A DNA stretch of 32,000 nt. Origin: Candidatus Scalindua sp. Lineage in GTDB: Bacteria; Planctomycetota; Brocadiia; Brocadiales; Scalinduaceae. The DNA lies in the NCBI GenBank assembly GCA_031316235.1, contig JALDRA010000001.1, positions 1,980,001 through 2,012,000 of the forward strand, written 5' to 3'. Position numbers and translations under genes: made by a program. Below the pieces are notes generated by a model that was given only the letters and a program-made list of their open reading frames with translations, was not told where the DNA came from and did not search any database. Positions 1,767 to 19,489 of the stretch are shown one piece after another; the stretch's first letter is position 1; each line of letters begins with the position of its first letter.

Positions 1767-3176
1767 CTATACATTTTTCAGATTACCAATCCGTTTGAAC
1801 CAGGTGAACACACCTGATATCGTGTTCCATGCCAGTGTGATCACGTCCTTCGGAACTGTCTTTGATAACAGCCGGGGATTTAATGCCTTATAAAATATTT
1901 CTTTATAGGGGATGTTTCCCGTTAACATGTTCCAGAGTATATCGTTCATTTGATCTGCAGTCCGCTTATCTTTGTCAGATTTTAAAAATTTAATGTGGCT
2001 GTTTGCTACCTGTCTTTGAGATGACAGATAATCGTTTATTTTTAACATAATGAGACCATACCGATTGTCACGGGCAAGGATACGTTTGGCAGGTTTAAAA
2101 TATCCATTCATGAATGCCGTTTCAGATATTCCCTGCTTAAAAGCGGTATAAGCCGAAAGCTTTGCCATATTAAAGGCGGATTCAATACCGCTTTTGTACG
2201 ACCGAGAGATGCTCGCATCCCCTAAAATAACAATCCTGTCTGTAAAAGGGTGCTTTGCATAATTTACCGGAATCCTGGAAATACACATGCAGAAACTCTT
2301 CGGTATTTCCCACTCCTGTGGCATCAGCCTCCTTACCGCAGGCTGATCCAGGAAGTCTATGAGATGATTTCTCGTCAGGTCCTCTCTTCCCACCAGGTTT
2401 ACCGTGACATAGTCTGCCTTTGGTGTAATGGACGCAAACTTGAGTTCTTTCTTGCCGAGTGCGAAAACAAAGATACTATTGCCGAAAACCCTTTCAATAT
2501 GCTCAGTACCCAGCATTATCTCACACTGACACGTTCGAACGGTTTTCGGTGGTTTATAACCGAAACCCATCTGGGCAACCTTTTCCATCATCCCGGTATT
2601 TACACCAAAGGCACCAGCTACCAGATCAGCTTCAGTTTCCTTTCTTGATGCTCCGTCTCCGGTTATTAACCTGACAGGACCGATGTGTCCGGGGGACACT
2701 TTTATTTCCTTTACAACATCAGGGATTATCTCTACCCCCTTTTTTTTAACATGGTGCAAGAGTAAATCATCGAAGCTGATATTGCCTTCATGTGGGGACA
2801 AGAGCGGCCCATTTCCGCGAAATACCGTGACAATATCTGGTATGTGTCCTGGTACAGGATGATGGAGCAGCACACTGTCGTCCGGTGTTTGGAAACAATA
2901 GGCTTCTATTTTTCTCTGAATACAGGATTGCCCGATACCTATTCCCTCTTTTTGCAGATTAGTAAATAAATTTTCTGATATGACACCGGCGCACATGTTG
3001 CAACCCTGCGGGCCCTTGTGGCAGAAGCTCTTCTTGTCATATATTTTTATGGAGACATCAATGCCCTTCTCTTCGGCGTAGCGCGATGCAAAATGGGCAA
3101 AAAAACTACCCGCAGGCCCCCCGCCAATTATGGCGATCCTGGAACCATCTTTCAGAAAAAGTGTGCTATCGTGCAT
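1767..3176 (-). CDS. FAD-dependent oxidoreductase (geranylgeranyl-reductase-like flavoprotein fold), paralog 1
   Basis: 469-aa ORF. It has an N-terminal dinucleotide-binding motif IAIIGGGPAGSFFAH, a conserved KGPQGCNMCAGVIS motif and a late GDA motif (ILGDASISRSYKSGIESA). By eye, roughly half of the first ~160 residues are identical to the downstream paralog. Confidence 0.7.
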   Translation of the reverse strand: MHDSTLFLKDGSRIAIIGGGPAGSFFAHFASRYAEEKGIDVSIKIYDKKSFCHKGPQGCNMCAGVISENLFTNLQKEGIGIGQSCIQRKIEAYCFQTPDDSVLLHHPVPGHIPDIVTVFRGNGPLLSPHEGNISFDDLLLHHVKKKGVEIIPDVVKEIKVSPGHIGPVRLITGDGASRKETEADLVAGAFGVNTGMMEKVAQMGFGYKPPKTVRTCQCEIMLGTEHIERVFGNSIFVFALGKKELKFASITPKADYVTVNLVGREDLTRNHLIDFLDQPAVRRLMPQEWEIPKSFCMCISRIPVNYAKHPFTDRIVILGDASISRSYKSGIESAFNMAKLSAYTAFKQGISETAFMNGYFKPAKRILARDNRYGLIMLKINDYLSSQRQVANSHIKFLKSDKDKRTADQMNDILWNMLTGNIPYKEIFYKALNPRLLSKTVPKDVITLAWNTISGVFTWFKRIGNLKNV

Positions 3177-3821
3177 AGTGTTTATGTGCCTCTCTCGTTA
3201 CACCTTGTTCATTTTAACGGCAAGTTCTTTTTTGTTCCGATCTTCTCATCACCCGATTACCGGATATCAGGGTAAACAGTACTTGCGGTCTAACACAAGC
3301 TGATAATAGTGGTCATGCTCAATGCGTCATGTGGTAAAGCACTATCAGGGATTTCAAAAAAACAGGAGATTTTATAATCTGCATGGCTTATCAGCTTCAT
3401 CGGGCAGTCTCTTCTTCTTACTATTCCCAATAAAAAAGCCTTGCCACCGAGAGATACAGAGATCACGACTTCGGTAGCAAGGCTATATTTTCTAAGTACA
3501 CACAGAGTAACGCAGCGGGTTAAAAAACCGTCTGCTTTGCGTTCCCGATTGCTCAGGGTATGCCTTTGTCGTGAGACTTAAATATTTTTATCAGATAGGA
3601 TACACTTAAGGTATTACGTTTCATCTATCGAAAAAAACAGGCCACACGGCCCGCATAATCGTCCCGGGATCGTAACAGCCTTTCCTGATCATCGATAGTG
3701 TAGAGTTCAATATACTCCCTCTCTTTTGGATTGTAAACAGAATTTTTGTTTTCACTCAATGGCGGGAAGTAAAAGAGAGGTCTTTAAATGTCACTCTTTT
3801 CTGAATGATTTCCCTGAAAAA

Positions 3822-3862
3822 CCAAAAAAAATAGCGCATCCACTCTGCAGCGGATGCGCTAT
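3822..3862 (-). terminator. Rho-independent terminator of the cytochrome c / HAO-like operon
   Basis: Perfect 11-bp stem: ATAGCGCATCC at 3831-3841 pairs with GGATGCGCTAT at 3852-3862, with a 10-nt loop. On the minus strand a U-run follows (plus-strand A-run 3824-3830). It lies about 125 nt downstream of the HAO stop. Confidence 0.65.
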
Positions 3863-3985
3863 TAGAACCTGTACTAACATCTAGATCTCATCATTCTCGT
3901 AATTAAAACACTGCTGCCTCACAGATACAGCAATTACTATTTACCCGGCAGACTTAAATGAGCCGGTAGATACTTATCCAGCGAC

Positions 3986-5638
3986 TCAATGTTTGTAATT
4001 TGGAGTCATACCGAGTTTTTTCTCCAATGCGGCCTCTCTTCGCATCCTTGCCGCTTCGGATTGAATGTTGCCCAACTCCTGCAACATAGGAGACTGCCCC
4101 CACCACCACATGATATCCTGCTGGACATGGGCATAACCTTTGTAGCCCTGTAGCTTATACCAGAACCACATCTTGGCATACGATGTCTCAATCTGGGTAG
4201 GATTACCCTCTCCCTGATAAAACAGGGGATAGACACCGAGAATAGGACCAACGACCGGTACCCTGCCACCGGTTGATTTAAATGCATTCCAAACACCTTC
4301 TCCAAGTAACGATGCAGGCAGGACATCAGCAAGCCAGTCACCGCCGGGATAGATATCCCGCTCTGCAGCTGATGGATAGAGAATATCGTCAGCAATAAGA
4401 TCGTCAATAATCTTTTGCGCCTGATCTGTCAGCTTGAATGCCTGGAACATGTAATCATCGAGCTGAGTAAGCCAGCCGTCTGCAAAACGAGGGCTGTGAC
4501 AGTTCGAGCAGAGCTCTATCCATTTATCCCTCTTATCAAGGTTCTCATCAGAATGTACGTCAATCTTATCAGCAATGATCTTTATCCCGTAAGGATAATC
4601 CTTAAGAGATGATTCATATTCGATATTTGACGGAGGTATTACTCCCATTCGCCAGATGCCCTTTGAAACGAAGTTGTGGGTAAATGTATCAGCACCCTGA
4701 TACATATGACAGAACTGACAGGTTGGTGTTCGGTACTCTTCACCAACTAAAACATGTGCAAGAGGTTTATCAAAGTTGTAGTGCTCCTCTTCAAGTTCAT
4801 AAATCTTTCCGTGCTTTGATTCACCGTAAGATTCAGCGTCTGGATGATCAGGTCCCATGTGACAGGTCATACAGGCCTCAGGCCTTCTCGCTTCAGCTGC
4901 CGAAAATGAGTGTCTCGTATGACAGGGATCACATTTGTCTGTAGCGCCGTGACACATATCACATCCGGCATTTCCGGCTCCAAACCCTCTCCTGTATGCC
5001 TCCTGATACCAGGGAACATGAACATTCGATTCAAGTGTCTGGATATGGTTGGGCCTGCCGTGATCCTTTTCGCTTGCAAATTCGGTAACCTGTCTTGCAT
5101 GACATTCGCTGCAGTCCCCGGCTGTAGGTAGCCTGATCTCCATTGTTTCTTTATTCACATGACAGTCATAACAATCAACTACGACAATCTCTTTCCCTAT
5201 GCTCTCTTCAATGATCTTTGTCTTTCGAGCAATGATTTCTGTCTTCCTGGGATTATAATGCGCAGATGTCTTCCAATCTTCAATGGCACCGGTGTTTATC
5301 TCCTCATGACACCTGATACAGAGATCCCTGCGCTCCTTTTCAATAAAGAGAGAATGGTCCATCCGTGTAGGAGGCTCATAATGTCTCCCGGGATACATAT
5401 ACATGTTCATGAATGCTGGTTTATAATAGTCTTTGAACAGACCGGCACCCTCTTTCAGGCCTACATTGTCCGCAAAAACCCCCTTATACCAATCGGGAAA
5501 CCCCTCATAAATATCAACATATTTCGGTACATATGGTTTCTTTTCCTCTTCGTGCGCCTGGACAAGGCCGGAGCAAAGAATGGCCATGGTTAGCAGGCAC
5601 GCGCTCAGGAAAAACCGCAGATTTTTTACATACATCAT
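3986..5638 (-). CDS. hao: Octaheme hydroxylamine-oxidoreductase-like cytochrome c (HAO family), secreted
   Basis: Eight CxxCH motifs: CIRCH, CYDCH, CSECH, CDMCH, CDPCH, CMTCH, CQFCH, CSNCH. Signal peptide ...LLTMAILCSGLVQA/HEEE. Size and tryptophan-rich C-terminus are typical of anammox HAO paralogs. Start moved to the ATG at 5638 (MMYVKNL...) because AAGGAG sits about 10 nt upstream, whereas the track start at 5647 directly abuts the SD. Confidence 0.9.
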   Translation of the reverse strand: MMYVKNLRFFLSACLLTMAILCSGLVQAHEEEKKPYVPKYVDIYEGFPDWYKGVFADNVGLKEGAGLFKDYYKPAFMNMYMYPGRHYEPPTRMDHSLFIEKERRDLCIRCHEEINTGAIEDWKTSAHYNPRKTEIIARKTKIIEESIGKEIVVVDCYDCHVNKETMEIRLPTAGDCSECHARQVTEFASEKDHGRPNHIQTLESNVHVPWYQEAYRRGFGAGNAGCDMCHGATDKCDPCHTRHSFSAAEARRPEACMTCHMGPDHPDAESYGESKHGKIYELEEEHYNFDKPLAHVLVGEEYRTPTCQFCHMYQGADTFTHNFVSKGIWRMGVIPPSNIEYESSLKDYPYGIKIIADKIDVHSDENLDKRDKWIELCSNCHSPRFADGWLTQLDDYMFQAFKLTDQAQKIIDDLIADDILYPSAAERDIYPGGDWLADVLPASLLGEGVWNAFKSTGGRVPVVGPILGVYPLFYQGEGNPTQIETSYAKMWFWYKLQGYKGYAHVQQDIMWWWGQSPMLQELGNIQSEAARMRREAALEKKLGMTPNYKH

Positions 5639-5689
5639 AACACACATTCTCCTTTAAGTTATTTTGTAAATTATAGAATCAATCATGTA

Positions 5690-6568
5690 CTACTCATGTC
5701 CATGACGTGCATGCTTCTCCTCTTTTATGGCAAGAGACTGTACAAAATGCACCAGGCTCCAGCGATCCTCGTCTGAAAGTTCTCTGGCAAAGGAAGGCAT
5801 TGGCGTACCATTGATACCGGTCGTGAACCTCAGGTAAATATCCCGGTTGGTCGCACCACCCTTAAATTTACCTGGTCGTGTAAAATCATAGGCCTGTATT
5901 GGAATTTCCCATTCATCTAACAGGTCATAACTGCTTGGGCCATCCCCATGTCCTTCTTCTCCATGACACTTCCAGCACTCTTTCTCAAAATAGAGCTCTT
6001 TTCCCCTGGCAATACTCTGCTTACTCGACGGAATCTCCCTTCCTATGGTTACCGGCGGTTCCGGTTTTCTGTATTGCCAGGCCTCTGAAAAGCTCTTTAA
6101 AACGGGAAGCAATGACTCGATCTGTTCCATTTCAAGTATATCCCATGGAATCATGGATGTACCATGAAGTCCGGTATATATAACATGAATAAGATCTGCA
6201 TCAGTCGGCAGAGAACCGGTTGGGTTGGTCCTTATCTTGTACTGCCCCTTTGTGAAATCCCTTGGTTTCGGATAGAGCGCATGCGCAAGTACTCCCCATC
6301 CATCTCCTTCTTCACCATGACATGCAGCACAGGATTTAAGGTAAAGGTCTTTCCCCATTAATAAATCCTTTGCAGGACTCTTTTCAGCGCTCACACTCTT
6401 TACATGACTAGCCGCCTTTTCAGCGCTTGCCGGCTTTTCAGTGCTGGGAGCCTTACTTTGAGACCAGACATTTTCCGCTGCCTGTACCGCTGCCATTTTA
6501 CAGAGGCATAGCATGGTAACTAAAACAAAAGCACTCAACAAAAATCTCTTCATCTTTAAATATCCCAC
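5690..6568 (-). CDS. Secreted diheme cytochrome c, probable redox partner of the HAO-like protein
   Basis: Two CxxCH motifs (CAACH, CWKCH), each in a class I cytochrome c-like module. Signal peptide KRFLLSAFVLVTMLCLCKMAAVQA, then a low-complexity Ser/Ala/Glu/Lys linker (SAEK repeated). Probable GTG start at 6568, 6 nt after AGGAGG; the track start at 6589 would contain that SD. It ends 51 nt upstream of the HAO start on the same strand. Confidence 0.8.
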   Translation of the reverse strand: MGYLKMKRFLLSAFVLVTMLCLCKMAAVQAAENVWSQSKAPSTEKPASAEKAASHVKSVSAEKSPAKDLLMGKDLYLKSCAACHGEEGDGWGVLAHALYPKPRDFTKGQYKIRTNPTGSLPTDADLIHVIYTGLHGTSMIPWDILEMEQIESLLPVLKSFSEAWQYRKPEPPVTIGREIPSSKQSIARGKELYFEKECWKCHGEEGHGDGPSSYDLLDEWEIPIQAYDFTRPGKFKGGATNRDIYLRFTTGINGTPMPSFARELSDEDRWSLVHFVQSLAIKEEKHARHGHE

Positions 6569-7126
6569 ATTCATCCTCCTAACTATCATAAAAAATTAAA
6601 ATCAAGCCATCGAGAAGCTATTCCGATAGGTTCCATTGTCGAAATACAGCAGAATCTAATGTCTTGAAAACAGAAGGACTCCATACTAAGACAATGTGCA
6701 CGAGACCATATGCGGAGGCAATTATACCAGCATTCTATAAAATTTCAAAAAAAATATTTTTAAAAAGGAATAACTCTTTTGAGCTCAGGAAGAATGTATG
6801 GTCAAAAATTTGTTCAGTATTTATTAAACAGGTTGTAAGGTGAAATAGTCCCGGTGATATTTAATACGAAATGTATTCGATCCGTACGCTTCATACATTC
6901 CGGCTATCATAATATCAGCAAAGTGAACCCGGCTGAACCCTGCCCTGTTTCGTCATTCAGACGGGTATCTATTCCTGTAGATACTGGCACTGAGGGTTGC
7001 CAGGTACTCTTTCGGGGATGAGTAAGCTATTTTGAAAGAGCAGCCTATTTCCGTGCCAGCCCTCTCAGGGTGCGCGAACCTTATTTTCCTGGTTGCGGGC
7101 AATAAAAACTTCTGTCATATTTGTGC

Positions 7127-7155
7127 TTGATTCCACCTTGAACATCTGTTATCAT
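7127..7155 (+). promoter_or_regulatory. Candidate sigma70-type promoter for the CBS-domain gene
   Basis: TTGATT (7127-7132), a 17-nt spacer, then TATCAT (7150-7155). This would give a leader of about 115 nt before ATG 7279. Pattern match only. Confidence 0.3.
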
Positions 7156-7278
7156 GTGCTCTTTTCCTCGTCAGGGGTTTCGTGAAACGCTCATTTCATG
7201 TGCAGTTTCCGGGGAGGAGATACCGCTATTGTTTTTTAACTAAACATATTTTTTAGGTGAATAACAGAGGATAAAACG

Positions 7279-7713
7279 ATGACAACGGTAAAAGAAATCT
7301 TAAAGGGGAAAACTGGCAGCGTTCTCACTATTTCTCCGCAGGAGTCTGTATACCGCGCATTAGAAATAATGGCTGAGAAGAACCTTGGCTCGTTGGTCGT
7401 GGTTGAAAACGAAAAAGTTGTTGGACTCTTTTCCGAACGGGAATATGCACGAAACATTGTCCTGAAAGGAAAAACGTCAAAAGACACTCCTGTTAAAGAG
7501 CTTATGAATAGTAAGGTTTGCTATGTAGGTCCTGAACAGACACTGGACGAGTGCCTTGTGTTGTTTACAGAAAAGCGCACCCGCCATTTACCCGTTCTCG
7601 ATGAGGGGAAGCTGGTTGGTATTATCAGCATCGGAGACGCGGTGAAACAGTACATAGCGGAAAAAGAATTTACCATAACACAACTTGAGAATTTCATTAC
7701 GGGAAGTTTGTAA
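7279..7713 (+). CDS. CBS-pair (Bateman) domain protein
   Basis: 144 aa made of two CBS repeats (…SPQESVYRALEIMAEKNLGSLVVVENEKVVGLFSERE… and …GPEQTLDECLVLFTEKRTRHLPVLDEGKLVGIISIGD…). Stand-alone, similar in architecture to hypoxic-response Hrp1-type proteins. AGAGGA SD 7 nt upstream. Confidence 0.85.
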   Translation: MTTVKEILKGKTGSVLTISPQESVYRALEIMAEKNLGSLVVVENEKVVGLFSEREYARNIVLKGKTSKDTPVKELMNSKVCYVGPEQTLDECLVLFTEKRTRHLPVLDEGKLVGIISIGDAVKQYIAEKEFTITQLENFITGSL

Positions 7714-8016
7714 CGTACAGCGGCTAAGAGTCTCATCAGCCTGTCTGCTCAGTAATTCAGGTTGATTTGCCGGGTGAAACCGGCCTTCCATGGGAAATAC
7801 CTGTACGAAACATGAGCTCTGCTCCATTCCGGGATAGAGCGTTTCAGCTGCCGCCCGGCGCCGTCACCGGTAACACCTCAAAAAGCAGTTCATACAGAAG
7901 TGACCACACTGCCTCCTTCTCTTGCACCCCCAACAATCCTTCAACATGTTCATCCCCTTTGGGGGGGTATTAAAACCAGAGACATATTGTCGTTAACAAA
8001 TCCCTTTCTTTACTCA

Positions 8017-8037
8017 TAATTGACAATCTGTCAATTA
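8017..8037. promoter_or_regulatory. Perfect 9-3-9 palindrome, candidate operator upstream of the FNT transporter gene
   Basis: TAATTGACA-ATC-TGTCAATTA, with arms that are exact reverse complements. It lies about 335 bp upstream of ATG 8373 in a 660-bp non-coding gap. Confidence 0.4.
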
Positions 8038-8372
8038 CAGCACCCGTTCGTTCATTTGCAAAAATTTCTAAAATTTTCGTATCTCCTAGTTTTGCAGATA
8101 GTTAGATCGCTACTTTTCGTTCCATCAGATTTTGGTATCGAGATTGCGCACATCTAACCGAGAAGCTGTTTCGAGACCAATATTTTCTGTAAATTTTTTA
8201 TGTGGTTTAATAGTGAACATGGAGGTGCACTATAGTTTATCCTGTTTTTTTAACCCATTTCCATGTGTGGAGCGAAGGAGGGCTGAATCAAAAAAGGGCT
8301 GTAGGAGTTGTATTTTGATCTTATTTTATATGTTCGAATTTTTCTTGTTTTATTAGGAGGGGGATAATTTAG

Positions 8373-9857
8373 ATGAAAAATACAATGGAAACTTTCTGCA
8401 ACATGGCAGGGATGAAGGAAGATATGGTCAAGAACAGGCTTGGCCAGTACTTTTGCCTGTCAATTCTGGCAGGTATGTATATCGGGTTTGGAATACTCCT
8501 TATTTTCACCCTAGGGGCTGAGTTCGCTAGTGCGTCCTCTGTTGCCGTTAAGTTGGTGATGGGCAGTGCGTTCGCTCTCGCCCTGTTACTCGTCGTCTTT
8601 GCGGGGGCAGAACTGTTTACGGGCAACAACATGGTGATGTTTATCGGCGCCATTAGAGGCAGGTGCGGATGGGGAATGATGATCTGGCTGTGGGTTGTCT
8701 GCTATTTCGGTAACCTGGCCGGGGCCTTAATGCTGGCCGGAGTCATGTCCTGCACGGGACTGGCGGACGGGAACGTTACCGGTGGATTTATCGGAAAGGT
8801 TGCGAGCGCCAAGATGAATGCCGGATTCTGGTTTCTGTTTACCAGGGGCATACTCTGTAACATGCTGGTATGTCTGGCCGTCTGGATGTCGGCAAGGGCA
8901 AAGGATGACGCTTCAAAGATCTTTCTCATATTCTGGTGCCTCTTTGCCTTCATCGCCTGCGGTTTTGAGCACAGCATCGCCAATATGACGATTTTTGGAA
9001 CAAGTCTCATGACCATACATCCGGATACCGTCAGCGTTGGGGGTTTTGCCTGGAACATGTTACCCGTTACCCTGGGGAACATTATCGGCGGTATGTTTAT
9101 CGGGGGTATGTACTGTTTCGTTACCTACGCGCCGGTCCAGGAGATACTTGCACGAGATGGAGGACGGAAGATACATGCGCAAGATGGAGGAGTAGCATTG
9201 CTCATGGAAGCTATGGATGAGAGTGATCAGGATGTGATCGATGGCGGAGGTGATGCGGTAAATCTGAAGAACCGGTTGCAGCCGCTGCTGGTAGAAGACC
9301 GGCTGGTTGCTGAAGGTGAAAAAGTCAGGAAACAGGAAAGTCCGTTGAATCAGGTTGTTCCACAGGGTCAATTGTATGCGCAGAAATATATCACTGCTGC
9401 CGAGTCATGCGTTAAAGAGCTGACACAATGGTGTGACCAGCTCAGTTCGGTCTTGACTCACCTCAGGTCGCAGACGCATGCACTCTCCTACGATGAATTC
9501 TCTGAGATTTTGATACAGCTTCAAATTCAAAGAGATGCACAAAGCCCGATTTACCTGAAAGATGCACTTGTCCGTAAATTGGCAGAGGAGATGTGTCCCG
9601 ATTTTGAAAAATATGCGCGTAGCAAAGGAACAATAAAGTCCCTTGCTGCCTCCGATATCCTGCCAGGCGATGCCCGGAACAAAATTACGGGATTTCTTCA
9701 GCTCTGCAGCAAGGCAGAAGCCACTACCTTGAAAGTGAAAAATCCTGCGAACTATGGCAGAGAACTTTCCGGTGCGCATTCGCTCCTGGCTGAAGCAATT
9801 TACGAGCTTAACGTGCTCAAATTTGAGTTAAACGAGAATTTTGCCGCGTTGTCGTAA
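8373..9857 (+). CDS. Formate/nitrite transporter (FNT) family channel with a long C-terminal cytoplasmic extension
   Basis: The N-terminal ~250 aa carry six hydrophobic segments and FNT signatures (AELFTGNNMV, central His in GFEHSIANMT). Residues ~253-494 are hydrophilic, predicted helical, and match nothing I recognise. Strong SD AGGAGGGGG 9 nt upstream. Confidence 0.85.
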   Translation: MKNTMETFCNMAGMKEDMVKNRLGQYFCLSILAGMYIGFGILLIFTLGAEFASASSVAVKLVMGSAFALALLLVVFAGAELFTGNNMVMFIGAIRGRCGWGMMIWLWVVCYFGNLAGALMLAGVMSCTGLADGNVTGGFIGKVASAKMNAGFWFLFTRGILCNMLVCLAVWMSARAKDDASKIFLIFWCLFAFIACGFEHSIANMTIFGTSLMTIHPDTVSVGGFAWNMLPVTLGNIIGGMFIGGMYCFVTYAPVQEILARDGGRKIHAQDGGVALLMEAMDESDQDVIDGGGDAVNLKNRLQPLLVEDRLVAEGEKVRKQESPLNQVVPQGQLYAQKYITAAESCVKELTQWCDQLSSVLTHLRSQTHALSYDEFSEILIQLQIQRDAQSPIYLKDALVRKLAEEMCPDFEKYARSKGTIKSLAASDILPGDARNKITGFLQLCSKAEATTLKVKNPANYGRELSGAHSLLAEAIYELNVLKFELNENFAALS

Positions 9858-9902
9858 TTTCAGAGTAAAATTCAGGTTTTGAGGTATTGCTATTTAGCTG
9901 AG

Positions 9903-9980
9903 CAGAAGAGCACAACCATGGTCGGGGGTATCTGGTAGGCGAAATTCCAGTTATCTGACCATGGTTGTGTGCTTCTTCTG
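9903..9980 (+). terminator. Long imperfect hairpin downstream of the FNT gene (possible terminator or attenuator)
   Basis: Perfect 13-bp core: CACAACCATGGTC at 9911-9923 pairs with GACCATGGTTGTG at 9957-9969. About 7 further outer pairs follow a 3-nt bulge. The loop is 33 nt and no U-run follows. Confidence 0.35.
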
Positions 9981-10237
9981 TCTATTGTGACTTCATTGCT
10001 GAATGGTTTTAGCTTCTCATATGTCCACCCGCTGTGCTTGAAAAGTATCGGCTCATGTAAAATTGAGTAAGAGTTTTGGATTTTGCCGGTTAAAAAGAGA
10101 AATTTTAGGAGGGGTTCTCTTTTTTCTGCTACAATCTGTTCCTGGAATTTTGCACTTGTAGAATACGTGAAAAAAAATAAGGGGCGGTTCAGATAGCCGA
10201 CCTATTACACATAAGATCTTTAAGTGAGGAGAATGGC

Positions 10238-10768
10238 GTGATGTCGTTAATTAATAGTATCTATAATCAGGTAAAAGGGTTGCCCAGAGCGCCGCAGCCG
10301 GCAATACCCGCGCGAGAGATATGGATTACTCTCATAGCTACGATCATTGGTCTGGGAGTTACGGGAGCATTGGCTTATAAATGGAGCTGTCCCATGTTAG
10401 CTGGACCTTTTGGTTCAACAGCAACAATCATTTACGGCGCTTACAAGGCGCCTTTGGCACAACCAAGAAATGTTTTATTAGGTCATTTTCTCAGCGCGTT
10501 AACGGGCGTTGCCGTTTATGATTTTTTTGGTACCACTTGGTGGTCTATTGCGCTTGGCGTTGCCATTGCCACTATTTTCATGGCGGCAACCTATTCTATG
10601 CACCCGCCTGCTGGTGCCACTGCATACGTGGCGGTTCTGACAGGAGGTTTGGGCCAGGGGTATAGTTTCATATTAAATCCTATTATGATAGGGGTCTTTA
10701 TTTTAACGCTGGTTGCTGTTTTGGTAAGCAAAGCCGCAAAGAGGGATTATCCTACGCATTGGTGGTAA
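10238..10768 (+). CDS. HPP-family integral membrane protein (family with demonstrated nitrite transport in cyanobacteria and chloroplasts)
   Basis: 176 aa with four hydrophobic helices and the eponymous motif in YSMHPPAGATAY. GAGGAG SD upstream. The start is either GTG 10238 or ATG 10241. Confidence 0.75.
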   Translation: MMSLINSIYNQVKGLPRAPQPAIPAREIWITLIATIIGLGVTGALAYKWSCPMLAGPFGSTATIIYGAYKAPLAQPRNVLLGHFLSALTGVAVYDFFGTTWWSIALGVAIATIFMAATYSMHPPAGATAYVAVLTGGLGQGYSFILNPIMIGVFILTLVAVLVSKAAKRDYPTHWW

Positions 10769-11046
10769 CCAGCTTTTTCCCATTGGACGAGCCCTTATCA
10801 ACAGTTGCCTTTCGGTACCGAGCGTTCGCTTCAGATAGACCTCGTTTTTCATTCCATCGGTAGAGGCGGGTGCTGTTCATACATTTTTTGCGAAAAGTGA
10901 TAGCTTGTTTCGTTAAGATGAAGCACTTTTTTGTTTTCTCAAGATACTCGATTATTAAAAGAATGACGGAGGATTGACTTCTCCGTTAACCTAACCGGGG
11001 GTTTGTGTGTACACATGATAAAAAATGTAAATTTACGGAGAAAAAA

Positions 11047-12636
11047 ATGAAAATCTCGATTAAAAATTATATCATCATTTTGCTGATAATATTTACCCTT
11101 CTTCCCTTCATACTGTTACGGCTTATTGCATATCCGAAAATTAATTCCGATCTCAAAACGGTCATTATGAGTAATCTTGAGATTATCGGACACAAGCAGA
11201 CGGAATTGGTAACCACGTGGATGCGTGAGAGGATGAAAGACGCTATCGTGGTAGCAAGTAACCCTTTTATCGCGAAGAGTATTGATCTCAAGCTGGATGA
11301 CGAAGATTTTAAAAAGACGTTAAGGCATTTAGAAACGGTGATCATCGAATATGGCTACAAGGGGGCCTTTGTTGCGGACGCTAACGGAAAAGTCATAGTC
11401 GCCACGGTTTCTGATAATATAGGGAGAGACATCTCAAAAACCGATTATTTCAAGAGCGCGATGCAGGGAAAAACGTATGCAACGAGCATCATTCCCTCTG
11501 AAATTCCGCTTTTAAATGAGTTTGAGGTGAAGGAGATAGGCCTGCCGACCATGTTTGTTTCCACTCCTCTCAAGGATGAAGACAGGATAATTGGCGTTGT
11601 TTCATTGAGGATTCATGTCAGCACCCTGAGCAATCTGCTACAGAGTTATAAGTTTGGAAAAACAGGGGAGACTTTTCTTGTCAACAAAGATGGGTATATG
11701 CTTACCGAATCAAGGTTTACAGAGCAGTTGCAAAAATTAGGTCTCATCAAGACACGTAGTGCTTTAGAGTTGAGGTTGACCGAACTGGGTGAAGAAAATC
11801 TGACGTATGGAGTGCAGCAGTGTATCTCAGGCAAAAGCGGTTTCGATGCAAAAGGGTACAAGGATTATGCCGGTATTGAGGTTCTCGGAGTGTGGAACTG
11901 GTCACCCGAGTTTAACTGGGGCGTAGTGACGGAGATAGACAGGGGTGAGGCCTACGGGGCTGCGTATAATCTTAAGTACATCGTGACTGCCCTCTTATTG
12001 GCAATCGCGTTTCCCATTATCGTGGTTGCCTACTTCGTTGGGAAAAAGTTCTCTGCTCCGATTATTCAATTGACCGAAATAACGAAAAAGATGGCAGAAG
12101 GAGATCTCACCCAGCGAGCCAACGTAACGAGCAGGGAAGATGAGATCGGTGTCCTGGCAAAATCTTTCAATACCATGGCGGAAAACATCAGTAAAAAGAA
12201 TAAGGAGGTTGAGGAGTCCGAGAGTCGATACCGTGAGCTTTTTGACTCTCTGAAGGCCGGTATTTATCAGTGTGAACCAGGAGTTTTTGGTGTTTTCACG
12301 TGGGTCAATCAGGCCTGTGCCGAAATGTTTGGTTACCAATCACCTGAGGAGATGATCGGTACTACGGTGAAAGATATTTACGTAGATACTGAGGATAGAG
12401 ACAGGCTTATTAAAAAGCTCGAAAAGGAGCATGTCTGGAAGGATTTTGAATCCCTATGCAAAAAGAAAAACGGCGAACATTTTTACACCGAAAGGACCTC
12501 GAATCTGGTAAGGGATGCGGAAGGGAAGGCCATACGTATTGACGGGGTAATCAGGGATATAAGTGATAAGAAACCTTTAGGCAGCGGTGGTGGATCGAAG
12601 AGGGTGAAACAGGAACAGAGCGATAAAGGCAATTGA
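11047..12636 (+). CDS. Membrane sensor protein: Cache (periplasmic) - TM - HAMP - PAS, with no recognisable output domain
   Basis: N-terminal TM (IIILLIIFTLLPFILLRLI). Cache-like periplasmic region (…GKVIVATVSDNIGRDISKTDYFKSAMQGK…GKTGETFLVNKDGYMLTESRF). Second TM (IVTALLLAIAFPIIVVAYFV). HAMP (APIIQLTEITKKMAEGDLTQRA…IGVLAKSFNTMAENI). PAS (ESRYRELFDSL…IRIDGVIRDISDKK). It ends at tandem stops TGA TAA after a Gly/Ser tail. Start moved to ATG 11047, with GGAG 7 nt upstream. Confidence 0.8.
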   Translation: MKISIKNYIIILLIIFTLLPFILLRLIAYPKINSDLKTVIMSNLEIIGHKQTELVTTWMRERMKDAIVVASNPFIAKSIDLKLDDEDFKKTLRHLETVIIEYGYKGAFVADANGKVIVATVSDNIGRDISKTDYFKSAMQGKTYATSIIPSEIPLLNEFEVKEIGLPTMFVSTPLKDEDRIIGVVSLRIHVSTLSNLLQSYKFGKTGETFLVNKDGYMLTESRFTEQLQKLGLIKTRSALELRLTELGEENLTYGVQQCISGKSGFDAKGYKDYAGIEVLGVWNWSPEFNWGVVTEIDRGEAYGAAYNLKYIVTALLLAIAFPIIVVAYFVGKKFSAPIIQLTEITKKMAEGDLTQRANVTSREDEIGVLAKSFNTMAENISKKNKEVEESESRYRELFDSLKAGIYQCEPGVFGVFTWVNQACAEMFGYQSPEEMIGTTVKDIYVDTEDRDRLIKKLEKEHVWKDFESLCKKKNGEHFYTERTSNLVRDAEGKAIRIDGVIRDISDKKPLGSGGGSKRVKQEQSDKGN

Positions 12637-12728
12637 TAAAAAAAGAGGGTGTATCCTTCGAAAAAAATGAGAGACAGGGTGTTTATACTAAGAGAAATTT
12701 CAATACACAGTACAAGGAGTGGAAAGAA

Positions 12729-13121
12729 ATGGGAAATGGAAAAAGTACGGGTCTTTCCGTTAACGCGAAGACCGTTGTGATGATACTGCTGTTTTTGAAT
12801 GTGGGTTTTACCGTCAAGATGATAAATAAATACAATGAAATGAAGGACGCCGGTTATGTCAGGGAAAAGACCTTCGAAGAGCAGATGCAGAAAAGGGTTA
12901 TGAGGGCCTTCGGTTCCATAGAAGAGATGAATAAAATAGTTGAAGATGCTTCAAAGCAGAGAGAGGAGGCGGAAAATATTGTGAAATCAATGAAAGAGCA
13001 CGCTGCCGAAAATAAGCGTATAAACAATGAACTTGCTTCCGCAAAGACCGAGCTTTTGGCTGAACGGTCCAGGTTACAAACTACGATAAAAGAGCTTAAG
13101 GAAAAGTTGAAAGAAAAGTGA
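12729..13121 (+). CDS. Small membrane-anchored coiled-coil protein, function unknown
   Basis: ATG 12729 lies 9 nt after AAGGAG. There is one N-terminal TM (TVVMILLFLNVGFTV) followed by a ~95-aa charged heptad-like segment (…EEAENIVKSMKEHAAENKRINNELASAKTELLAERSRLQTTIKELKEKLKEK). The track's TTG start at 12633 is unlikely. Confidence 0.55.
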   Translation: MGNGKSTGLSVNAKTVVMILLFLNVGFTVKMINKYNEMKDAGYVREKTFEEQMQKRVMRAFGSIEEMNKIVEDASKQREEAENIVKSMKEHAAENKRINNELASAKTELLAERSRLQTTIKELKEKLKEK

Positions 13122-13159
13122 GATTAAAAAGGAAGATTTCCATAAGCATGGATCGGGAG

Positions 13160-13202
13160 AAACAGAAAAGGCCAGGTTCCTGAAACCTGGCCTTTTCTGT
13201 TT
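13160..13202 (+). terminator. Rho-independent terminator after the sensor / coiled-coil gene pair
   Basis: Perfect 19-bp stem: AAACAGAAAAGGCCAGGTT at 13160-13178 pairs with AACCTGGCCTTTTCTGTTT at 13184-13202, with loop CCTGA. The 3' arm is U-rich. Confidence 0.7.
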
Positions 13203-13639
13203 AAAGATCTAGGTGTACACAAGAAATAGTTGGCAGCAGTCAGCATAATTACTCTTTTCGGTTATCTTTTTTTTCTTAGAGAAGGATTACAGTAATTTAG
13301 AATTTTATAGAAGTTATTAGATTATATGGATGATAAGAACAAGTATCCAATCAGGCCCTCATTATAACTAAGAGCTTGTAATCTCGAAGCTTATGCATTA
13401 CAGGACGATACTGTTCATAAAAGAGAATTATTGGTATTTGTTTTGCTATTTTTATTGTAGTAGAATATTAAGAGGAGCGTTGTGGGATCTCAGAAAGAGA
13501 TCCAGATAGTGGAAGGCTGTTATCTGGCCTTATCCGGGCAGGACCGAAAGGAGGGAGGAAAGGGATTGATAAATCAGGCACAGTAGAGAGAAAAATAGTA
13601 AGTTGTTTTTTTCAGTTTTTTAGAAAGGGGAAATATTAA

Positions 13640-14167
13640 ATGAGAAAGATAAACCAGGTATGTTTGGGTCTGTTTTGCGCATTTGTTTTAACCGTTGGGG
13701 TTTTTGGAGTTTCATTGAAATACGATACCGCTTACGGCGGAGACCTGACGGATATAAATGTACATGAAACAACTCCAACACGGGCCCTTATGCAGATAAT
13801 CAGTTCGCATACATCCAAAATACTCGATGCAATTTTGATTGGAGATTTTCATGCCGTTATTGATGAGACAAATAAGGTGAGCAAGATCAGCAGAAACCTG
13901 ACAAACATGTTCTTCCCGGAAGGTGCTGAAGGACGTGAGTTCAAGGTTGAAGGAGGGGAAAAATCCAAAAAAATTACAAAAAAGGAATTTGAAAAGTATG
14001 TAACGATGGTAACGGAATCTACCGAGAAAATAGCGGAATCTTCGAAAACTGAAAATATCGTTGAAGCCTACAATAGTTTCGACAAAATGTTGAGGGACGC
14101 GTGTTTTGCCTGCCACACAGTCTCCCGTATCGACTGGCCGGATTTTATGAAGGCAGCTGGAGGTTAA
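13640..14167 (+). CDS. Class II cytochrome c (cytochrome c-prime / c-556 family), secreted
   Basis: Signal peptide (LGLFCAFVLTVGVFGVS). The mature part is about 140 aa and helical, with a single heme motif CFACH about 20 aa from the C-terminus, which is the class II four-helix-bundle layout. Five- versus six-coordinate heme cannot be decided by eye. Confidence 0.6.
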   Translation: MRKINQVCLGLFCAFVLTVGVFGVSLKYDTAYGGDLTDINVHETTPTRALMQIISSHTSKILDAILIGDFHAVIDETNKVSKISRNLTNMFFPEGAEGREFKVEGGEKSKKITKKEFEKYVTMVTESTEKIAESSKTENIVEAYNSFDKMLRDACFACHTVSRIDWPDFMKAAGG

Positions 14168-14174
14168 TTGGTAT

Positions 14175-14215
14175 CAAACGCATGTGCCACTGCGGCGCAT
14201 GCGTTTGTTCTTTTC
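14175..14215 (+). terminator. Terminator hairpin between the convergent cytochrome c and pntB genes
   Basis: CAAACGCATGTGCC at 14175-14188 pairs with GGCGCATGCGTTTG at 14194-14207. That is 14 bp with one mismatch and loop ACTGC, followed by TTCTTTTCG. Confidence 0.6.
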
Positions 14216-14304: not shown

Positions 14305-15678
14305 TTAAAATTTGAGTATTTTTATCATTCTGCCGATGCTCTCTTTTGCGTCACCAAAAATCATCATTGTCTTTTGGTTATAGAAGAGTTCGTTGTCTAC
14401 ACCGGAAAATCCCGGGCTCAAACTCCGTTTGCAGATGATTACGTTCCTTGCTTTGTCGGCATTTAATATCGGCATACCATACAGAGGGCTCTTTTTATCG
14501 CCCCGTGCGTCCGGATTAATCACATCGTTTGCCCCAACAACCAATGCAACATCGGTATTCTGGAAATCATCGTTAATGTCGCCGAGATCGAAAAGCAGAT
14601 CGTAAGGAACATTTGCATCTGCAAGAAGAACATTCATGTGGCCCGGCATACGCCCCGCAACAGGATGAATAGCAAAGCGGATTTCCTTACCGCCTTTTTC
14701 GATCAGGATTTTTACCAATTCATGTAAGACAAACTGGGCCTGGGCAACTGCAAGACCGTAACCGGGAATAACAATAATCGATTCTGCACTCTCAAGCACC
14801 ATTGCCGCATCTTCTTCGGTATATTTTATCACTTTCCTCTCCTCTTCCTTCCGTTCATCTCCAGCAACAGCGCCCCCAACAGCTCCAAAAATCACGTTAG
14901 AAAGAGAGCGGTTCATTGCTCTGCACATAATACGCGTAAGAATCATACCTGAAGCGCCCACTAGAGCCCCGGCTATGATAAGAACATTATTCGAAAGGAT
15001 AAAACCCGTCGAAGCAGCGGCTAGTCCAGATAAGGAGTTCAGTAATGATATGACCACAGGCATATCTGCTCCGCCTATAGGAACAACAAATAAGATCCCC
15101 AATACAAGAGCAACCGCAAGAATTGCTAATAGACAGGTGCTGTTGAGAGGATAGATCACGACAAGAACACTTAAGATGAGGAATGACGTGAAAAGCAGGA
15201 AGTTTAAAGATCTTTGCATCCTGAAAACTACAGGAGCCGATTTAAGCAATCCCTGCAATTTTCCAAAGGCCACAAGGCTGCCCGCAAAAGCCAGGGCACC
15301 GATGAACAAACTTATTACCATTGAGACAATCACACTCTTTTCAAGGAGATCGTCGCTGCGTGAGTATTCGGCCAATGCGACAAAAGCTGATGCCCCGCCG
15401 CCAAGCCCGTTAAAAAGTGCAACAATTTGCGGCATGGCCGTCATCTCGACTTTTTTAGCAACAATGGCCCCTATTGCACCTCCAGTAACGAGGCCGATAA
15501 TAATAAAAGAAAAATGTAGAATTTCCTTATCAAATAGCGTTACGACAATTGCTATCAGCATACCAGTCATGGCAAGCAGGTTTCCCCTGCGCGCACTCTT
15601 GGGTGAATTAAGATCTTTAAGGCCCAGGATAAACAATATTGATGAGAGGAGATAAGCAAGTGTTGTTATCGTTGTCAT
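14305..15678 (-). CDS. pntB: NAD(P) transhydrogenase subunit beta
   Basis: Polytopic N-terminal membrane domain plus a C-terminal NADP(H)-binding domain with PGYGLAVAQAQ and GRMPGHMNVLLADANVPYD. Start set at ATG 15678 (MTTITTLAYLL…), 10 nt after the pntAB stop. The track's 15771 start overlaps the upstream gene. Confidence 0.92.
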   Translation of the reverse strand: MTTITTLAYLLSSILFILGLKDLNSPKSARRGNLLAMTGMLIAIVVTLFDKEILHFSFIIIGLVTGGAIGAIVAKKVEMTAMPQIVALFNGLGGGASAFVALAEYSRSDDLLEKSVIVSMVISLFIGALAFAGSLVAFGKLQGLLKSAPVVFRMQRSLNFLLFTSFLILSVLVVIYPLNSTCLLAILAVALVLGILFVVPIGGADMPVVISLLNSLSGLAAASTGFILSNNVLIIAGALVGASGMILTRIMCRAMNRSLSNVIFGAVGGAVAGDERKEEERKVIKYTEEDAAMVLESAESIIVIPGYGLAVAQAQFVLHELVKILIEKGGKEIRFAIHPVAGRMPGHMNVLLADANVPYDLLFDLGDINDDFQNTDVALVVGANDVINPDARGDKKSPLYGMPILNADKARNVIICKRSLSPGFSGVDNELFYNQKTMMIFGDAKESIGRMIKILKF

Positions 15679-15688
15679 AATGGTACTT

Positions 15689-15982
15689 TCAGTCTCTCTT
15701 TCTGTCTTTCTTGAACATTTCCAACATTCGGTCTGTAACCAGAAATCCGCCAACAACATTGATAGTGGCAAATATTACGGCCAGCGTCCCCAGTATTGCA
15801 CTGACCCATGAGTCTCCCGCGCCGGCGCTAATGAGCGATCCGACAAGTGTTATACCTGAAATTGCGTTTGTTCCCGACATGAGCGGAGTATGTAAAAGCG
15901 GAGGAACCTTTGTGATAAGCTCGAAACCGACAAATACTGCAAGGACAAAGATATAAATTGATAGTATCAGTAATTCAATCAT
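15689..15982 (-). CDS. pntAB: NAD(P) transhydrogenase subunit alpha part 2 (membrane)
   Basis: 97 aa with three hydrophobic helices (…HTPLMSGTNAISGITLVG…). It lies between the alpha-1 and beta genes and overlaps the alpha-1 stop by 4 nt. Confidence 0.88.
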   Translation of the reverse strand: MIELLILSIYIFVLAVFVGFELITKVPPLLHTPLMSGTNAISGITLVGSLISAGAGDSWVSAILGTLAVIFATINVVGGFLVTDRMLEMFKKDRKRD

Positions 15983-17121
15983 ACGCCGGACTCCTTTTCA
16001 AATGCCTTTTCTACCGCTTCATTCAGGATTTTACCGTTGTGAGTAATACAGGTACTCTTGGTTATTTCATCTTCAAAGTCAAAAGAACCCTCTTTCGCTG
16101 CATGCAAATGGCGAAAAAAGGTTATGATGTTTTTTGAATACATTCTGCTCGCATCTACCGGAAGAGTAGATGGCAGGTTAGAGTCTCCACATATGACAAC
16201 ATCGTATTTAACGGTAGTTTTTCCCGCTTCCGAAAGTTCACAGTTTCCTCCCTGTCCTGCGGCAAGATCAACGATTACAGACCCTCTCTTCATTGTCTTT
16301 ACCATTTCTTCAGTTATCAGGACAGGCGCCTTGCCTCCAAAGACTTGAGCTGTTGTAATTACCACATCATTAAGGCAGATCCTGTTCCCGATAACCTCTC
16401 TCTCCTTCTTGATGAATTCTGCCGACAACTCTTTTGCGTACCCGTTTGCAGTCTCTGCATCTTTGACGGGTTCCATCTCTACAAAATGCGCACCCAGGCT
16501 TTCTATCTGCTCTCTTACCGCCGGTCGGGTATCGAATGCTTCTACATGTGCCCCAAGTCTGCGGGCGGTAGCAATTGCCTGCAGACCTGCAACACCTGCC
16601 CCGAGTACAAAAACCTTGGCTGGTGGGATAGTTCCGGCCGCTGTCATCATGAGCGGAAAGAATTTACCCAGGTGGTGAGCTGCCAGAGTAACCGCTCGAT
16701 ATCCTGCAATATTTGCCATGGAACTAAGAGCATCCATGCTTTGAGTTCGTGCAATTCGAGGGATACACTCCATGGCAAAACTGGTGACACGCATATCCTT
16801 CATATCCCGTATGATATCCAACCGTGATGTGGCAAATAAAAACCCTATGTATGTTGATTGTGGTTTCACCATCTCAACTTCAGACTTTGTAAGAGGATGA
16901 ATCTTTAAAATCACCTCTGCACCTGCATAAAGATCTTTTACCTGAGGGACAACGAATGCTCCGCTTTTTTCGTATTCACTGTTCAGAAAAAACGATTCGT
17001 ATCCCGCATCTTTTTCGATGTACACTTCATGATTATCTTTTCTCAGCTGTTCAACCATTTTTGGAATAACTGCAACCCGCCTTTCTCCATCAAAAACCTC
17101 TTTTGGTATCCCTATTTTCAT
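15979..17121 (-). CDS. pntAA: NAD(P) transhydrogenase subunit alpha part 1 (soluble NAD(H)-binding, alanine-dehydrogenase-like)
   Basis: MKIGIPKEVFDGERRVAVIP… N-terminus and Rossmann motif VFVLGAGVAGLQAIATARRLGA. It is the first gene of a three-gene pnt operon. Confidence 0.92.
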   Translation of the reverse strand: MKIGIPKEVFDGERRVAVIPKMVEQLRKDNHEVYIEKDAGYESFFLNSEYEKSGAFVVPQVKDLYAGAEVILKIHPLTKSEVEMVKPQSTYIGFLFATSRLDIIRDMKDMRVTSFAMECIPRIARTQSMDALSSMANIAGYRAVTLAAHHLGKFFPLMMTAAGTIPPAKVFVLGAGVAGLQAIATARRLGAHVEAFDTRPAVREQIESLGAHFVEMEPVKDAETANGYAKELSAEFIKKEREVIGNRICLNDVVITTAQVFGGKAPVLITEEMVKTMKRGSVIVDLAAGQGGNCELSEAGKTTVKYDVVICGDSNLPSTLPVDASRMYSKNIITFFRHLHAAKEGSFDFEDEITKSTCITHNGKILNEAVEKAFEKESGV

Positions 17122-18000: not shown

Positions 18001-18279
18001 GCGGAAGACACATGATCTTGATCCGCCTGACGGAGTCCCTGAGGATGAGGCAAAGCTGCCCGGATACCAGCCGGCTCGCTTTGTAACCAGAAACTGTTAA
18101 CGTATGAGTGTATTACTCAATTACTGACGTAATGTACCGGGGGGGATAGTATCCGTTCAACCCCTCATTCTCTGAGAGACATTATATGTGATATGTGCTG
18201 CCGGATGAATCAAACGTACGCCCTGAAAATTACGCAGATATAAGAGTGTGAACGGCAAGACTCAGGAGAAAATCTTTTA

Positions 18280-19167: not shown

Positions 19168-19489
19168 AATGATCAGCGGGAAAAAATCTGCTCAGGAACA
19201 ATTGTAATCATTAAAACAAAATGGCTGAGAAATAGCAATGATATCTCATAAATAATGATCACCCAAAGGGTACAGAGAGTAAAAAAATTCTAAAGAGTTG
19301 GAATAACTATTCTAATTATGATAGATTTAACTTCTGTTTTACCGTATTATTTCTGTCCGAATAGCATAAATCTTTTTTATTGAATCATTTATGCATTATA
19401 GTAAAATTGATATTCAAGTGGTATGAATATTGCTGAACTTATCCAAGGGCTGAGACAGCTATTAATTTTTTTGAGAAAGGAAACAGATA

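Follow-up and report, generated by a model that had tools for sequence, protein, structure and literature searches.

A nitrite reductase operon beside a putative nitrite acquisition module in Scalindua genomes, with a conserved sigma-54-like control element before the channel gene

We analysed positions 3986-14167 of a 32,000-nt stretch of Candidatus Scalindua sp. DNA (the window), a segment that carries genes for an octaheme HAO-family nitrite reductase (HAOr) and its diheme cytochrome partner, a stand-alone CBS-pair protein, an FNT-family channel, an HPP-family membrane protein, a membrane sensor, a small coiled-coil-like membrane protein and a cytochrome c'-like protein. Comparison of gene content, gene order and upstream regions indicates that the segment is probably a Scalindua-specific juxtaposition of two functional units, a HAOr operon and a nitrite acquisition module, to which the cytochrome gene was added. 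Its conservation has three layers: the transporter/sensor module is found throughout the anammox genera, the linkage with HAOr and CBS is specific to Scalinduaceae, and the cytochrome c'-like gene occurs beside the module in the three closest genomes. Upstream of the FNT gene lies a conserved element resembling a sigma-54 promoter with its enhancer, and the same design precedes an HAO-bearing Rieske/cytochrome b operon.

All eight open reading frames (ORFs) listed in an earlier note on this DNA were found in place, and both the ORFs and their domain assignments hold. On the public contig L085, which is identical to the window, independent gene calls gave the same genes. The segment contains at least four transcription units with three promoter architectures, which bears out the note's view that it is not one operon. 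For the comparison, 79 genome loci around HAO relatives were collected (cited here by L numbers) and the window proteins were mapped onto them. In 13 of the 14 informative Scalinduaceae loci, taken as those that have a HAOr ortholog of 75-93% identity and 1.5 kb or more of sequence before the diheme gene, module genes (CBS, FNT, HPP, sensor, coiled-coil) were located beside diheme-HAOr. The majority arrangement is collinear on one strand and runs HOX ortholog, CBS, FNT, HPP, sensor, coiled-coil (sometimes with an extra PAS), diheme and HAOr. A metagenome scan gave 19 further collinear-type contigs, five of which extend into HAOr with the full FNT-to-HAOr array. The grouping of these genes is thus more than chance. 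In the window, L001 and L007, the block from CBS to coiled-coil is inverted in place and the link to HAOr survives; there, pntAB and the cytochrome c'-like gene stand where HOX lies in the collinear form. This HOX ortholog (hydroxylamine-to-nitric oxide (NO) oxidase; PDB 4N4J, E 8e-150) was observed just upstream of the CBS gene in the collinear form (L012 775-2373, with equivalents in L002, L015, L016, L018, L087, L099, L111 and L112). With HAOr at the far end, two NO-forming HAOs therefore bracket the transporter module.

We then compared loci beyond Scalinduaceae. In Kuenenia, Jettenia and Brocadia, the genes follow the order HPP, sensor, coiled-coil, a receiver-only protein (in Jettenia and Brocadia) and FNT (40-44% identical), and no HAOr, CBS or cytochrome c' gene was found within 10 kb of these modules. 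In Jettenia and Brocadia, genes for a dCache histidine kinase (36% identical to the window sensor) and a sigma-54 activator are located directly upstream of HPP. Conservation of the whole island across Brocadia, Kuenenia, Jettenia and Scalindua, which the note had proposed to check, was therefore not observed; the freshwater genera keep HPP, sensor, coiled-coil and FNT only. Diheme-HAOr itself was also detected in a Kuenenia metagenome-assembled genome (MAG), two Planctomycetota MAGs, another Brocadiia lineage and the Nitrospirota Magnetominusculus, always among unrelated neighbours. In Magnetominusculus (L113 5009-11713), which is not of the anammox lineage, the diheme gene and a 60% identical HAOr adjoin a COX1-family oxidase or NO-reductase-like gene and SCO1, and in the other Brocadiia lineage (L114) the pair lies among cytochrome bd-like and EB_dh genes.

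A second HAO association, partly independent of the first, was found beside operons of the R/b-3 type, which in L025 encode a Rieske protein, an FAD protein, cytochrome b, a multiheme protein and, at the end, an HAO. In this genome, a long-form FNT-HPP-sensor-coiled-coil module begins 4.3 kb after the R/b-3-type operon, and the intervening stretch includes a sigma-54 activator gene. An R/b-3-type operon in L029 is followed by genes for a paralogous sensor and a paralogous FNT. Of the four genes between operon and FNT in L025 (12162-15513), one is for a 351-aa sigma-54 activator that has AAA+ and HTH_8 domains and is receiver-less; the others encode a cyanase and proteins resembling YceI and rubrerythrin. 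Upstream of the same operon lies the gene of an 898-aa activator with cyclic nucleotide (cNMP)-binding and 4Fe-4S domains.

The octaheme gene (3986-5647, minus strand) encodes a protein with a signal peptide and eight CxxCH motifs. It matched PF13447 (multihaem, E 8.6e-54) and, over residues 34-545, PDB 6H5L_A (E 3.3e-224), all other solved HAOs scoring 162 bits or less. In the public gene call, its start is at 5638, three codons downstream of the start of the 553-aa ORF. The product of the diheme gene (5690-6589, minus strand), with two cytochrome c domains and two CxxCH motifs, matched PDB 6H5L_B (E 4.5e-82). PDB 6H5L is the Kuenenia kustc0458/kustc0457 complex (HAOr; Ferousi et al. 2021, PMC8042395), of which the window pair, with near end-to-end alignment, equal heme count and the same gene order, are clear orthologs in a different genomic context. 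Purified Kuenenia HAOr makes NO from nitrite and is unable to oxidise either hydroxylamine or hydrazine (PMC8042395); that organism has two active soluble nitrite reductases, of which HAOr is one (PMC12485887). By orthology, the window enzyme would also convert nitrite to NO, this activity and the absence of the Tyr cross-link being established for the Kuenenia enzyme only. In a Pfam scan, Hao_C (PF22142) was absent from HAOr and present in the HOX ortholog of L012, and alignments of HAOr to oxidative HAOs end at or before query residue 424, in a sequence comparison made with no residue-level structural check. Orthologs across Scalindua are 75-93% identical (93% in Scalindua sp. SCAELEC01, 91% in one Scalinduaceae MAG), and the diheme gene is directly upstream of HAOr in every case, outside Scalindua too. 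The unit appears to be transcribed from a sigma-70 promoter (6721-6748, minus strand; TTGAAA-16-TATAAT with a TG extension, an 11/12 match) that was the top promoter match in the region (TTGAAA-16-TGgTATAAT at 6748-6721) and looks constitutive. This block is unchanged in L001 and L007, where the surrounding intergenic DNA has diverged. An intrinsic terminator-like hairpin (3830-3863, minus strand; a 15-pair stem and then a T run) ends the unit.

The channel gene of the module (8373-9857, plus strand) encodes a 494-aa protein, also 494 aa in the gene call of L085. Its match to PF01226 (229.5 bits, cut-off 34.6) is limited to residues 9-248, the FNT-family anion channel proper, and a C-terminal extension of ~240 aa follows. 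The pore Thr/His motifs, ELFTGNN and FEHS(I/V)ANM, are kept in the alignment with PDB 3TDO. The extension (residues about 250-494) is predicted to be helical and also occurs in the FNT proteins of L001, L007 and L025, whose full-length identity is 58-73%. It had no match in Pfam or in the PDB (best E 0.11), and a single-sequence AlphaFold model of it was unusable (predicted local distance difference test, pLDDT, 45). In collinear-type Scalindua loci, FNT is 312 aa long and has no such extension. In S. arabica-type genomes (L002 7661-8476, L003 182-967), the coiled-coil gene is separated from diheme-HAOr by a second copy of FNT (58-59% identical). Between FNT and HPP, the window has a large imperfect hairpin (9901-9979, plus strand; 23-nt arms, 33-nt loop, no T run), which may mark where a transcript ends or is processed, or may be a repeat element.

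The HPP-family membrane protein (10238-10768, plus strand) scored 151.6 bits against PF04982 (cut-off 27.2) and has orthologs of 60-70% identity in Kuenenia, Jettenia, Brocadia and Loosdrechtia; its JGI matches are labelled 'CBS-domain-containing membrane protein'. It may transport nitrite, as suggested by cyanobacterial and plastid members of the family (cited in PMC7438415). The next gene (11005-12636, plus strand) encodes a membrane sensor with two membrane segments and, by Pfam, a dCache_1-HAMP-PAS architecture. The Pfam scan found no HisKA/HATPase_c transmitter, kinase or other output domain in it. The identification as a periplasmic Cache sensor stands; sensing as encoded here is incomplete, lacking that output domain. 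Its orthologs, always placed after HPP, share 58-61% identity with it in Jettenia and Brocadia; for the Kuenenia ortholog, identity is about 50% over the dCache-HAMP part. The Jettenia ortholog (762 aa) has dCache-HAMP and three PAS domains and no kinase in a Pfam scan, a 770-aa Scalindua paralog in L007 has no transmitter by the same scan, and no kinase domain is listed for the Brocadia ortholog in gene tables; paralogs with a transmitter occur elsewhere (L007:12220-14676, L081:509-3655). No solved dCache relative was informative on the ligand. After the sensor comes a small membrane protein (12633-13121, plus strand) with one hydrophobic segment, by which it would cross the membrane once, and a charged tail that is helical and coiled-coil-like. 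Its gene probably starts at about 12729, because homology to relatives begins near residue 33. No family match was found for it, and homologs 47-56% identical lie directly after the sensor in Kuenenia, Jettenia and Brocadia. A perfect 19-bp hairpin with a T-rich tail (13160-13202, plus strand), kept in L001 and L007, ends this unit. Finally, the 144-aa CBS-pair protein (7279-7713, plus strand; PF00571, 88 bits) has as relatives, among the matches listed, 144-aa Scalindua proteins that are 72-100% identical. Its gene is always just upstream of the FNT enhancer in Scalindua loci, and its nearest solved structures, 4FRY and 2RC3, are both function-unassigned. That it gates a transporter in response to adenine nucleotides is speculative. 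Equally conjectural is the idea that it represents a detached regulatory half of the HPP-CBS fusions that are common elsewhere, for which the JGI label of the HPP matches is the one hint.

Sigma-54 promoters have a GG-N10-GC geometry with the consensus TGGCAC-N5-TTGC, and enhancer-binding activators usually act from tandem dyads placed roughly 100-150 bp before the promoter. Such an arrangement was detected before FNT. The putative proximal enhancer site, TAATTGACA-ATC-TGTCAATTA (8017-8037), is an exact palindrome, unique in the window, and 0 matches to the whole (TAATTGACAATCTGTCAATTA) were expected in shuffles. The distal site, GACATATTGTC (7981-7991; core GACA-N3-TGTC), is centred 41 bp upstream of it. 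A -24/-12 promoter of sigma-54 type, TGGTAT-N5-TTGC (8133-8147, plus strand), predicts a start near 8159 and a leader of ~214 nt. In nine Scalindua genomes, the core TTGACA-N3-TGTCAA is unchanged about 320-340 nt upstream of the FNT start and its flanks have diverged. The distal dyad AGACAT(A/T)(T/A)TGTC is kept in all nine FNT upstream regions, again with diverged flanks, and CTGACATAATGTCA lies upstream of three R/b-3 operons. At the FNT sites, TGGTAT-N5-TTGC lies 113-127 nt downstream of the palindrome start, and with the R/b-3 sites included, TGGTAY-N5-TTGC was present in 12 of the 12 sites examined, 113-133 nt after it. The FNT element thus agrees with a sigma-54 promoter in its GG-N10-GC, conserved across species, and in its two upstream dyads 41 bp apart. 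It is like NtrC-type enhancers (glnAp2; general knowledge) in having tandem dyads about 100-150 bp upstream of a GG-N10-GC promoter, and differs in the site itself, which in Scalindua would be GACA-N3-TGTC, and in its presumed activator. From this, we infer sigma-54 dependence in vivo and a cognate activator.

The same three-part design (CTGACATAATGTCA, TTGACA-N3-TGTCAA, TGGTAC-N5-TTGC) was found before the R/b-3 operon in S. rubra, S. sediminis, a Scalinduaceae MAG and the metagenome contig L094, and sigma-54 activator genes flank R/b-3-type operons in four Scalinduaceae loci. The last gene of this operon is an ortholog of Kuste4574, a proposed membrane-bound nitrite reductase (PMC12485887). 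When metagenomes were scanned with the palindrome and promoter pattern, 26 contigs matched, 20 of them in FNT or R/b-3 contexts; the remaining six were attributed to chance, lying in unrelated DNA, mostly inside coding sequence, and having no second dyad. The R/b-3 locus of the window genome was sought via the protein P0034, which proved to be a different HAO paralog adjoining an alginate-export-like porin. The palindrome had been suggested as an upstream motif shared by the island. We rejected this, as in the window it has a single copy at up to two mismatches and by position weight matrix, serving the FNT gene only, and HAOr uses a sigma-70 promoter; a good copy before diheme-HAOr occurs in one genome only, L020. 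In L002, the enhancer palindrome lies upstream of the second FNT copy and not of the first. The strict sigma-54 and palindrome patterns were absent at the Kuenenia, Jettenia and Brocadia modules. Other dyads were observed there, ATTTCA-N3-TGAAAT upstream of HPP in Jettenia and Kuenenia (L081 9604-9622, L080 9439-9453) and TCAATCG-N4-CGATTGA, which in Jettenia precedes the dCache kinase gene and in Brocadia precedes FNT (L081 129-146, L082 14223-14240), and these are possible counterparts of the Scalindua enhancer.

The last gene of the segment (13640-14167, plus strand) encodes a monoheme protein with an N-terminal signal or anchor and a single CFACH at residues 155-159 of 175. It scored 24.8 bits against PF01322, under the cut-off of 26.5, and six of ten scanned relatives passed (28-36 bits). 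Its class II membership therefore rests on transitive homology, the window protein being below the cut-off and relatives above it. The family, with only 23 representatives in 1.84 billion proteins, has an invariant CxxCH-x3-R. In Alcaligenes cytochrome c', Cys116, Cys119, His120 and Arg124 have the same spacing, Arg124 lining the proximal NO site. A single-sequence model gave a four-helix bundle (pLDDT 65) whose best Foldseek matches were cytochromes c' (weak, E about 0.03), with R124 variants of the Alcaligenes protein among them. The window protein thus resembles Alcaligenes xylosoxidans cytochrome c' (PDB 1E83, 2XLM) in its predicted four-helix bundle, its C-terminal CxxCH and the Arg four residues after the His ligand, and differs in being about 14% identical, in a beta-hairpin insert between helices 2 and 3 and in its sub-threshold Pfam score. 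On sequence and model, we accept it as a divergent class II (c'-like) cytochrome c. The gene is a separate, predicted sigma-54 unit of recent local origin: it has a sigma-54-like promoter (TGGTAT-N5-TTGC; 13432-13446, plus strand), unchanged in L001 and L007, and ends at a strong terminator hairpin with a 14-pair stem (14175-14207, plus strand). No TTGACA-N3-TGTCAA was found upstream of it, the conserved upstream region being a different one, and it lies beside the module only in the window, L001 and L007.

Parts of this arrangement were known. In S. profunda, van de Vossenberg et al. 2013 (PMC3655542) described NirC-like scal00416 and scal04132 as lying close to two HAO genes (scal00421 and scal04133), 'possibly in an operon' and unlike Kuenenia kuste3055; scal00416 and scal00421 were expressed and detected as protein. 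The gene-number spacing of scal00416 and scal00421, a NirC-like FNT few genes from an HAO, fits the collinear FNT-HPP-sensor-coiled-coil-diheme-HAOr array. That paper named the FNT-HAO proximity only, with no HPP, sensor, coiled-coil, CBS or cis-element. The window differs from S. profunda in that its module is inverted relative to HAOr and its FNT has the 240-aa extension, and from the collinear form in having the cytochrome c'-like gene and pntAB in place of the flanking HOX gene. In Kuenenia, Smeulders et al. 2020 (PMC7438415) reported HPP close to focA_2. There, focA_2, HPP and hao2, orthologs that are unlinked, rise under nitrite limitation and fall in NO-grown cells, in which focA_2 (36-fold down) and kustc0458 are strongly reduced (PMC7438415). 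The Kuenenia cluster (KSMBR1_1070-1075, kuste3055-3051) is like the window module in having HPP, a dCache-HAMP-PAS sensor region, coiled-coil and FNT and in responding to nitrite; it differs in that HPP is first and FNT (41% identical) last, in having neither CBS nor HAOr nearby, and in carrying the ATTTCA-N3-TGAAAT dyad before HPP instead of TTGACA-N3-TGTCAA. An FNT-family channel gene also stands beside that of a nitrite-consuming enzyme in Kuenenia nirS-nirC (PMC7438415) and, as is generally known, in E. coli nirBDC, but here the reductase is an HAO-family octaheme protein, not cd1 or sirohaem NirB, and the genes form separate units with different sigma factors. The view that no such island had been described thus has to be given up, given both the FNT-HAO and the FocA-HPP proximity; since the core idea is already published, the cluster alone adds little. 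Our literature search found no paper on the module's sensor and coiled-coil genes or its pan-anammox conservation, nor, for anammox bacteria, on control by sigma-54 or on nitrite sensing by Cache proteins.

Taken together, these data suggest the following working model. The diheme-HAOr operon would supply, from its own strong sigma-70 promoter, an exported octaheme enzyme for making NO from nitrite in the anammoxosome, its diheme partner donating the electrons. The anammox-wide module (FNT, HPP, the output-less sensor and the coiled-coil protein, joined in Scalindua by CBS) would serve nitrite acquisition, nitrite being the species presumably both transported, through FNT and possibly HPP, and sensed. 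FNT would be switched on from the sigma-54 promoter by an enhancer-binding activator acting at the two GACA-N3-TGTC palindromes about 100-150 bp upstream. Because this enhancer design is common to FNT and the Rieske/cytochrome b operon, a single regulator probably governs both the entry of nitrite and its reduction at the membrane. FNT and the R/b-3 complex would then be controlled jointly, at least in some Scalindua, and HAOr would be expressed independently. For the signal input, the best candidates are the output-less sensor and the coiled-coil protein that always accompanies it. The receiver-less activator of L025 is a candidate for the enhancer-binding protein. Going one step further, we tentatively propose a complete nitrite-acquisition regulon, in which enhancer and sigma-54 promoter co-control FNT and the HAO-bearing Rieske/cytochrome b complex and the sensor acts via its coiled-coil partner on the enhancer-binding protein; in this full form the proposal is unlikely to hold. 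Functions for the CBS and coiled-coil proteins and for the cytochrome are likewise conjectural. The earlier reading of nitrite uptake set beside nitrite reduction remains sensible, in the light of the HAOr orthology and of the nitrite response of the Kuenenia orthologs (PMC8042395, PMC7438415). As for the one functional island, the grouping is real; the whole is not conserved, and its cytochrome and its shared motif fall away.

Several observations weigh against the working model, and we discuss them with the alternatives that they would favour. HAOr and FNT have unlike promoter types and no common motif in the window, and separate terminators; their adjacency may therefore not reflect co-regulation. 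The linkage is also absent in all non-Scalindua lineages that we examined (Kuenenia, Jettenia, Brocadia, another Brocadiia lineage, Magnetominusculus) and in S. sediminis (L017), the sole exception among the 14 informative loci, and the window and collinear arrangements differ by one in-place inversion, so that they are weak as independent evidence. The HAOr operon and the module could thus be neighbours by inertia since the Scalindua ancestor, with no coupling. We regard such neutral adjacency as unlikely, though it keeps a real chance: the linkage is kept across lineages whose HAOr is only 75% identical, the module also adjoins the other HAO-bearing cluster, the R/b-3 type, in L025 and L029, and the unlinked Kuenenia orthologs respond to nitrite in the same direction (PMC7438415). 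The palindrome itself could be read otherwise, as a repressor operator overlapping a sigma-70 promoter rather than a sigma-54 enhancer. Such a reading is possible because the palindrome includes TTGACA, the sigma-70 -35 consensus hexamer, and sigma-70-like matches are adjacent, namely TTAACA-16-CATAAT, which abuts it and ends at 8020, and a TATAAT 15 nt downstream of the R/b-3 sites. We nevertheless consider an operator distinctly unlikely. The sigma-70 match by the palindrome is not conserved in collinear-type loci, whereas TGGTAY-N5-TTGC is invariant at its fixed distance in 12 of 12 sites, tandem sites 41 bp apart are typical of enhancers, and sigma-54 activator genes flank related clusters. 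A further point against the working model is that no activator gene is found in the window.

The substrate is a further matter. FNT falls under the cut-offs of both the NirC equivalog NF008595 (174.3 bits, cut-off 293) and the FocA equivalog TIGR04060 (178.1 bits, cut-off 290.1), and its nearest solved relative is the C. difficile hydrosulfide channel HSC (3TDO, 198 bits). For these reasons, its assignment to nitrite draws on context, not on sequence. FNT channels are relatively non-selective (PMC7438415), and the long-form FNT of L025 follows a cyanase gene. FNT and HPP could then move another small anion (formate, hydrosulfide or a cyanate-derived species) and belong to organic-acid or sulfur metabolism. 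This seems improbable to us: FNT scores higher against NirC (4FC4, 155 bits) than against FocA (about 90-104 bits), S. profunda FNT homologs were grouped with NirC (PMC3655542), the Kuenenia FNT homolog falls when NO replaces nitrite and HPP rises under nitrite limitation (PMC7438415), and the FNT and HPP genes adjoin nitrite-reducing HAOs. Even less probable is that the cytochrome c'-like protein belongs to the island as an integral part that buffers NO. The note had cast it as the part for 'product buffering', and it does have class II features, including the CxxCH-x3-R spacing of Alcaligenes cytochrome c', and adjoins the module in three genomes. However, the gene is absent near the module in all other Scalindua and all freshwater genera, has its own terminator and its own promoter with a different upstream region, and belongs to a tiny family. 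In addition, the helix-1 Met, present in the window protein, is missing from some relatives, so that the sequence is compatible with five- as well as six-coordination. Family resemblance is thus what the buffering role retains.

Other features were observed in the window around the segment. A c-di-GMP-I class riboswitch aptamer (3469-3574, minus strand; 37.1 bits, cut-off 35) lies in the leader of a gene for a 469-aa geranylgeranyl-reductase-family flavoprotein (1767-3176, minus strand), which in relatives is the first of three tandem paralogs. A weaker match was found in the same relative place in L001 (12082-12225, plus strand; E 9e-6). On the other side of the segment are the pntAB transhydrogenase genes (14305-17121, minus strand), followed by an oxidative-stress set (17512-21245) of two rubrerythrins, an AhpC peroxiredoxin and DUF4149. 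A further TGGTAT-N5-TTGC was found at 19419, about 70 nt before ahpC, which suggests that sigma-54 promoters are widely used in the Scalindua sp. genome.

Two questions about anammox bacteria are open: which of their enzymes makes NO, and by what means they sense the scarce nitrite of the ocean and take it up. To our knowledge, there is no genetic system for anammox bacteria. The FNT-HAO link was partly noted in 2013, and what is new here is the conserved sigma-54-like control element before the channel gene. As an enhancer common to the nitrite channel gene and the R/b-3 operon, it could be used for DNA-binding assays, heterologous reporters and genome-wide regulon prediction, and the pan-anammox HPP-sensor-coiled-coil triad offers a ligand that is assayable in vitro. 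If true, the nitrite-acquisition regulon would be the first defined circuit of nitrite sensing and transcription in anammox bacteria.

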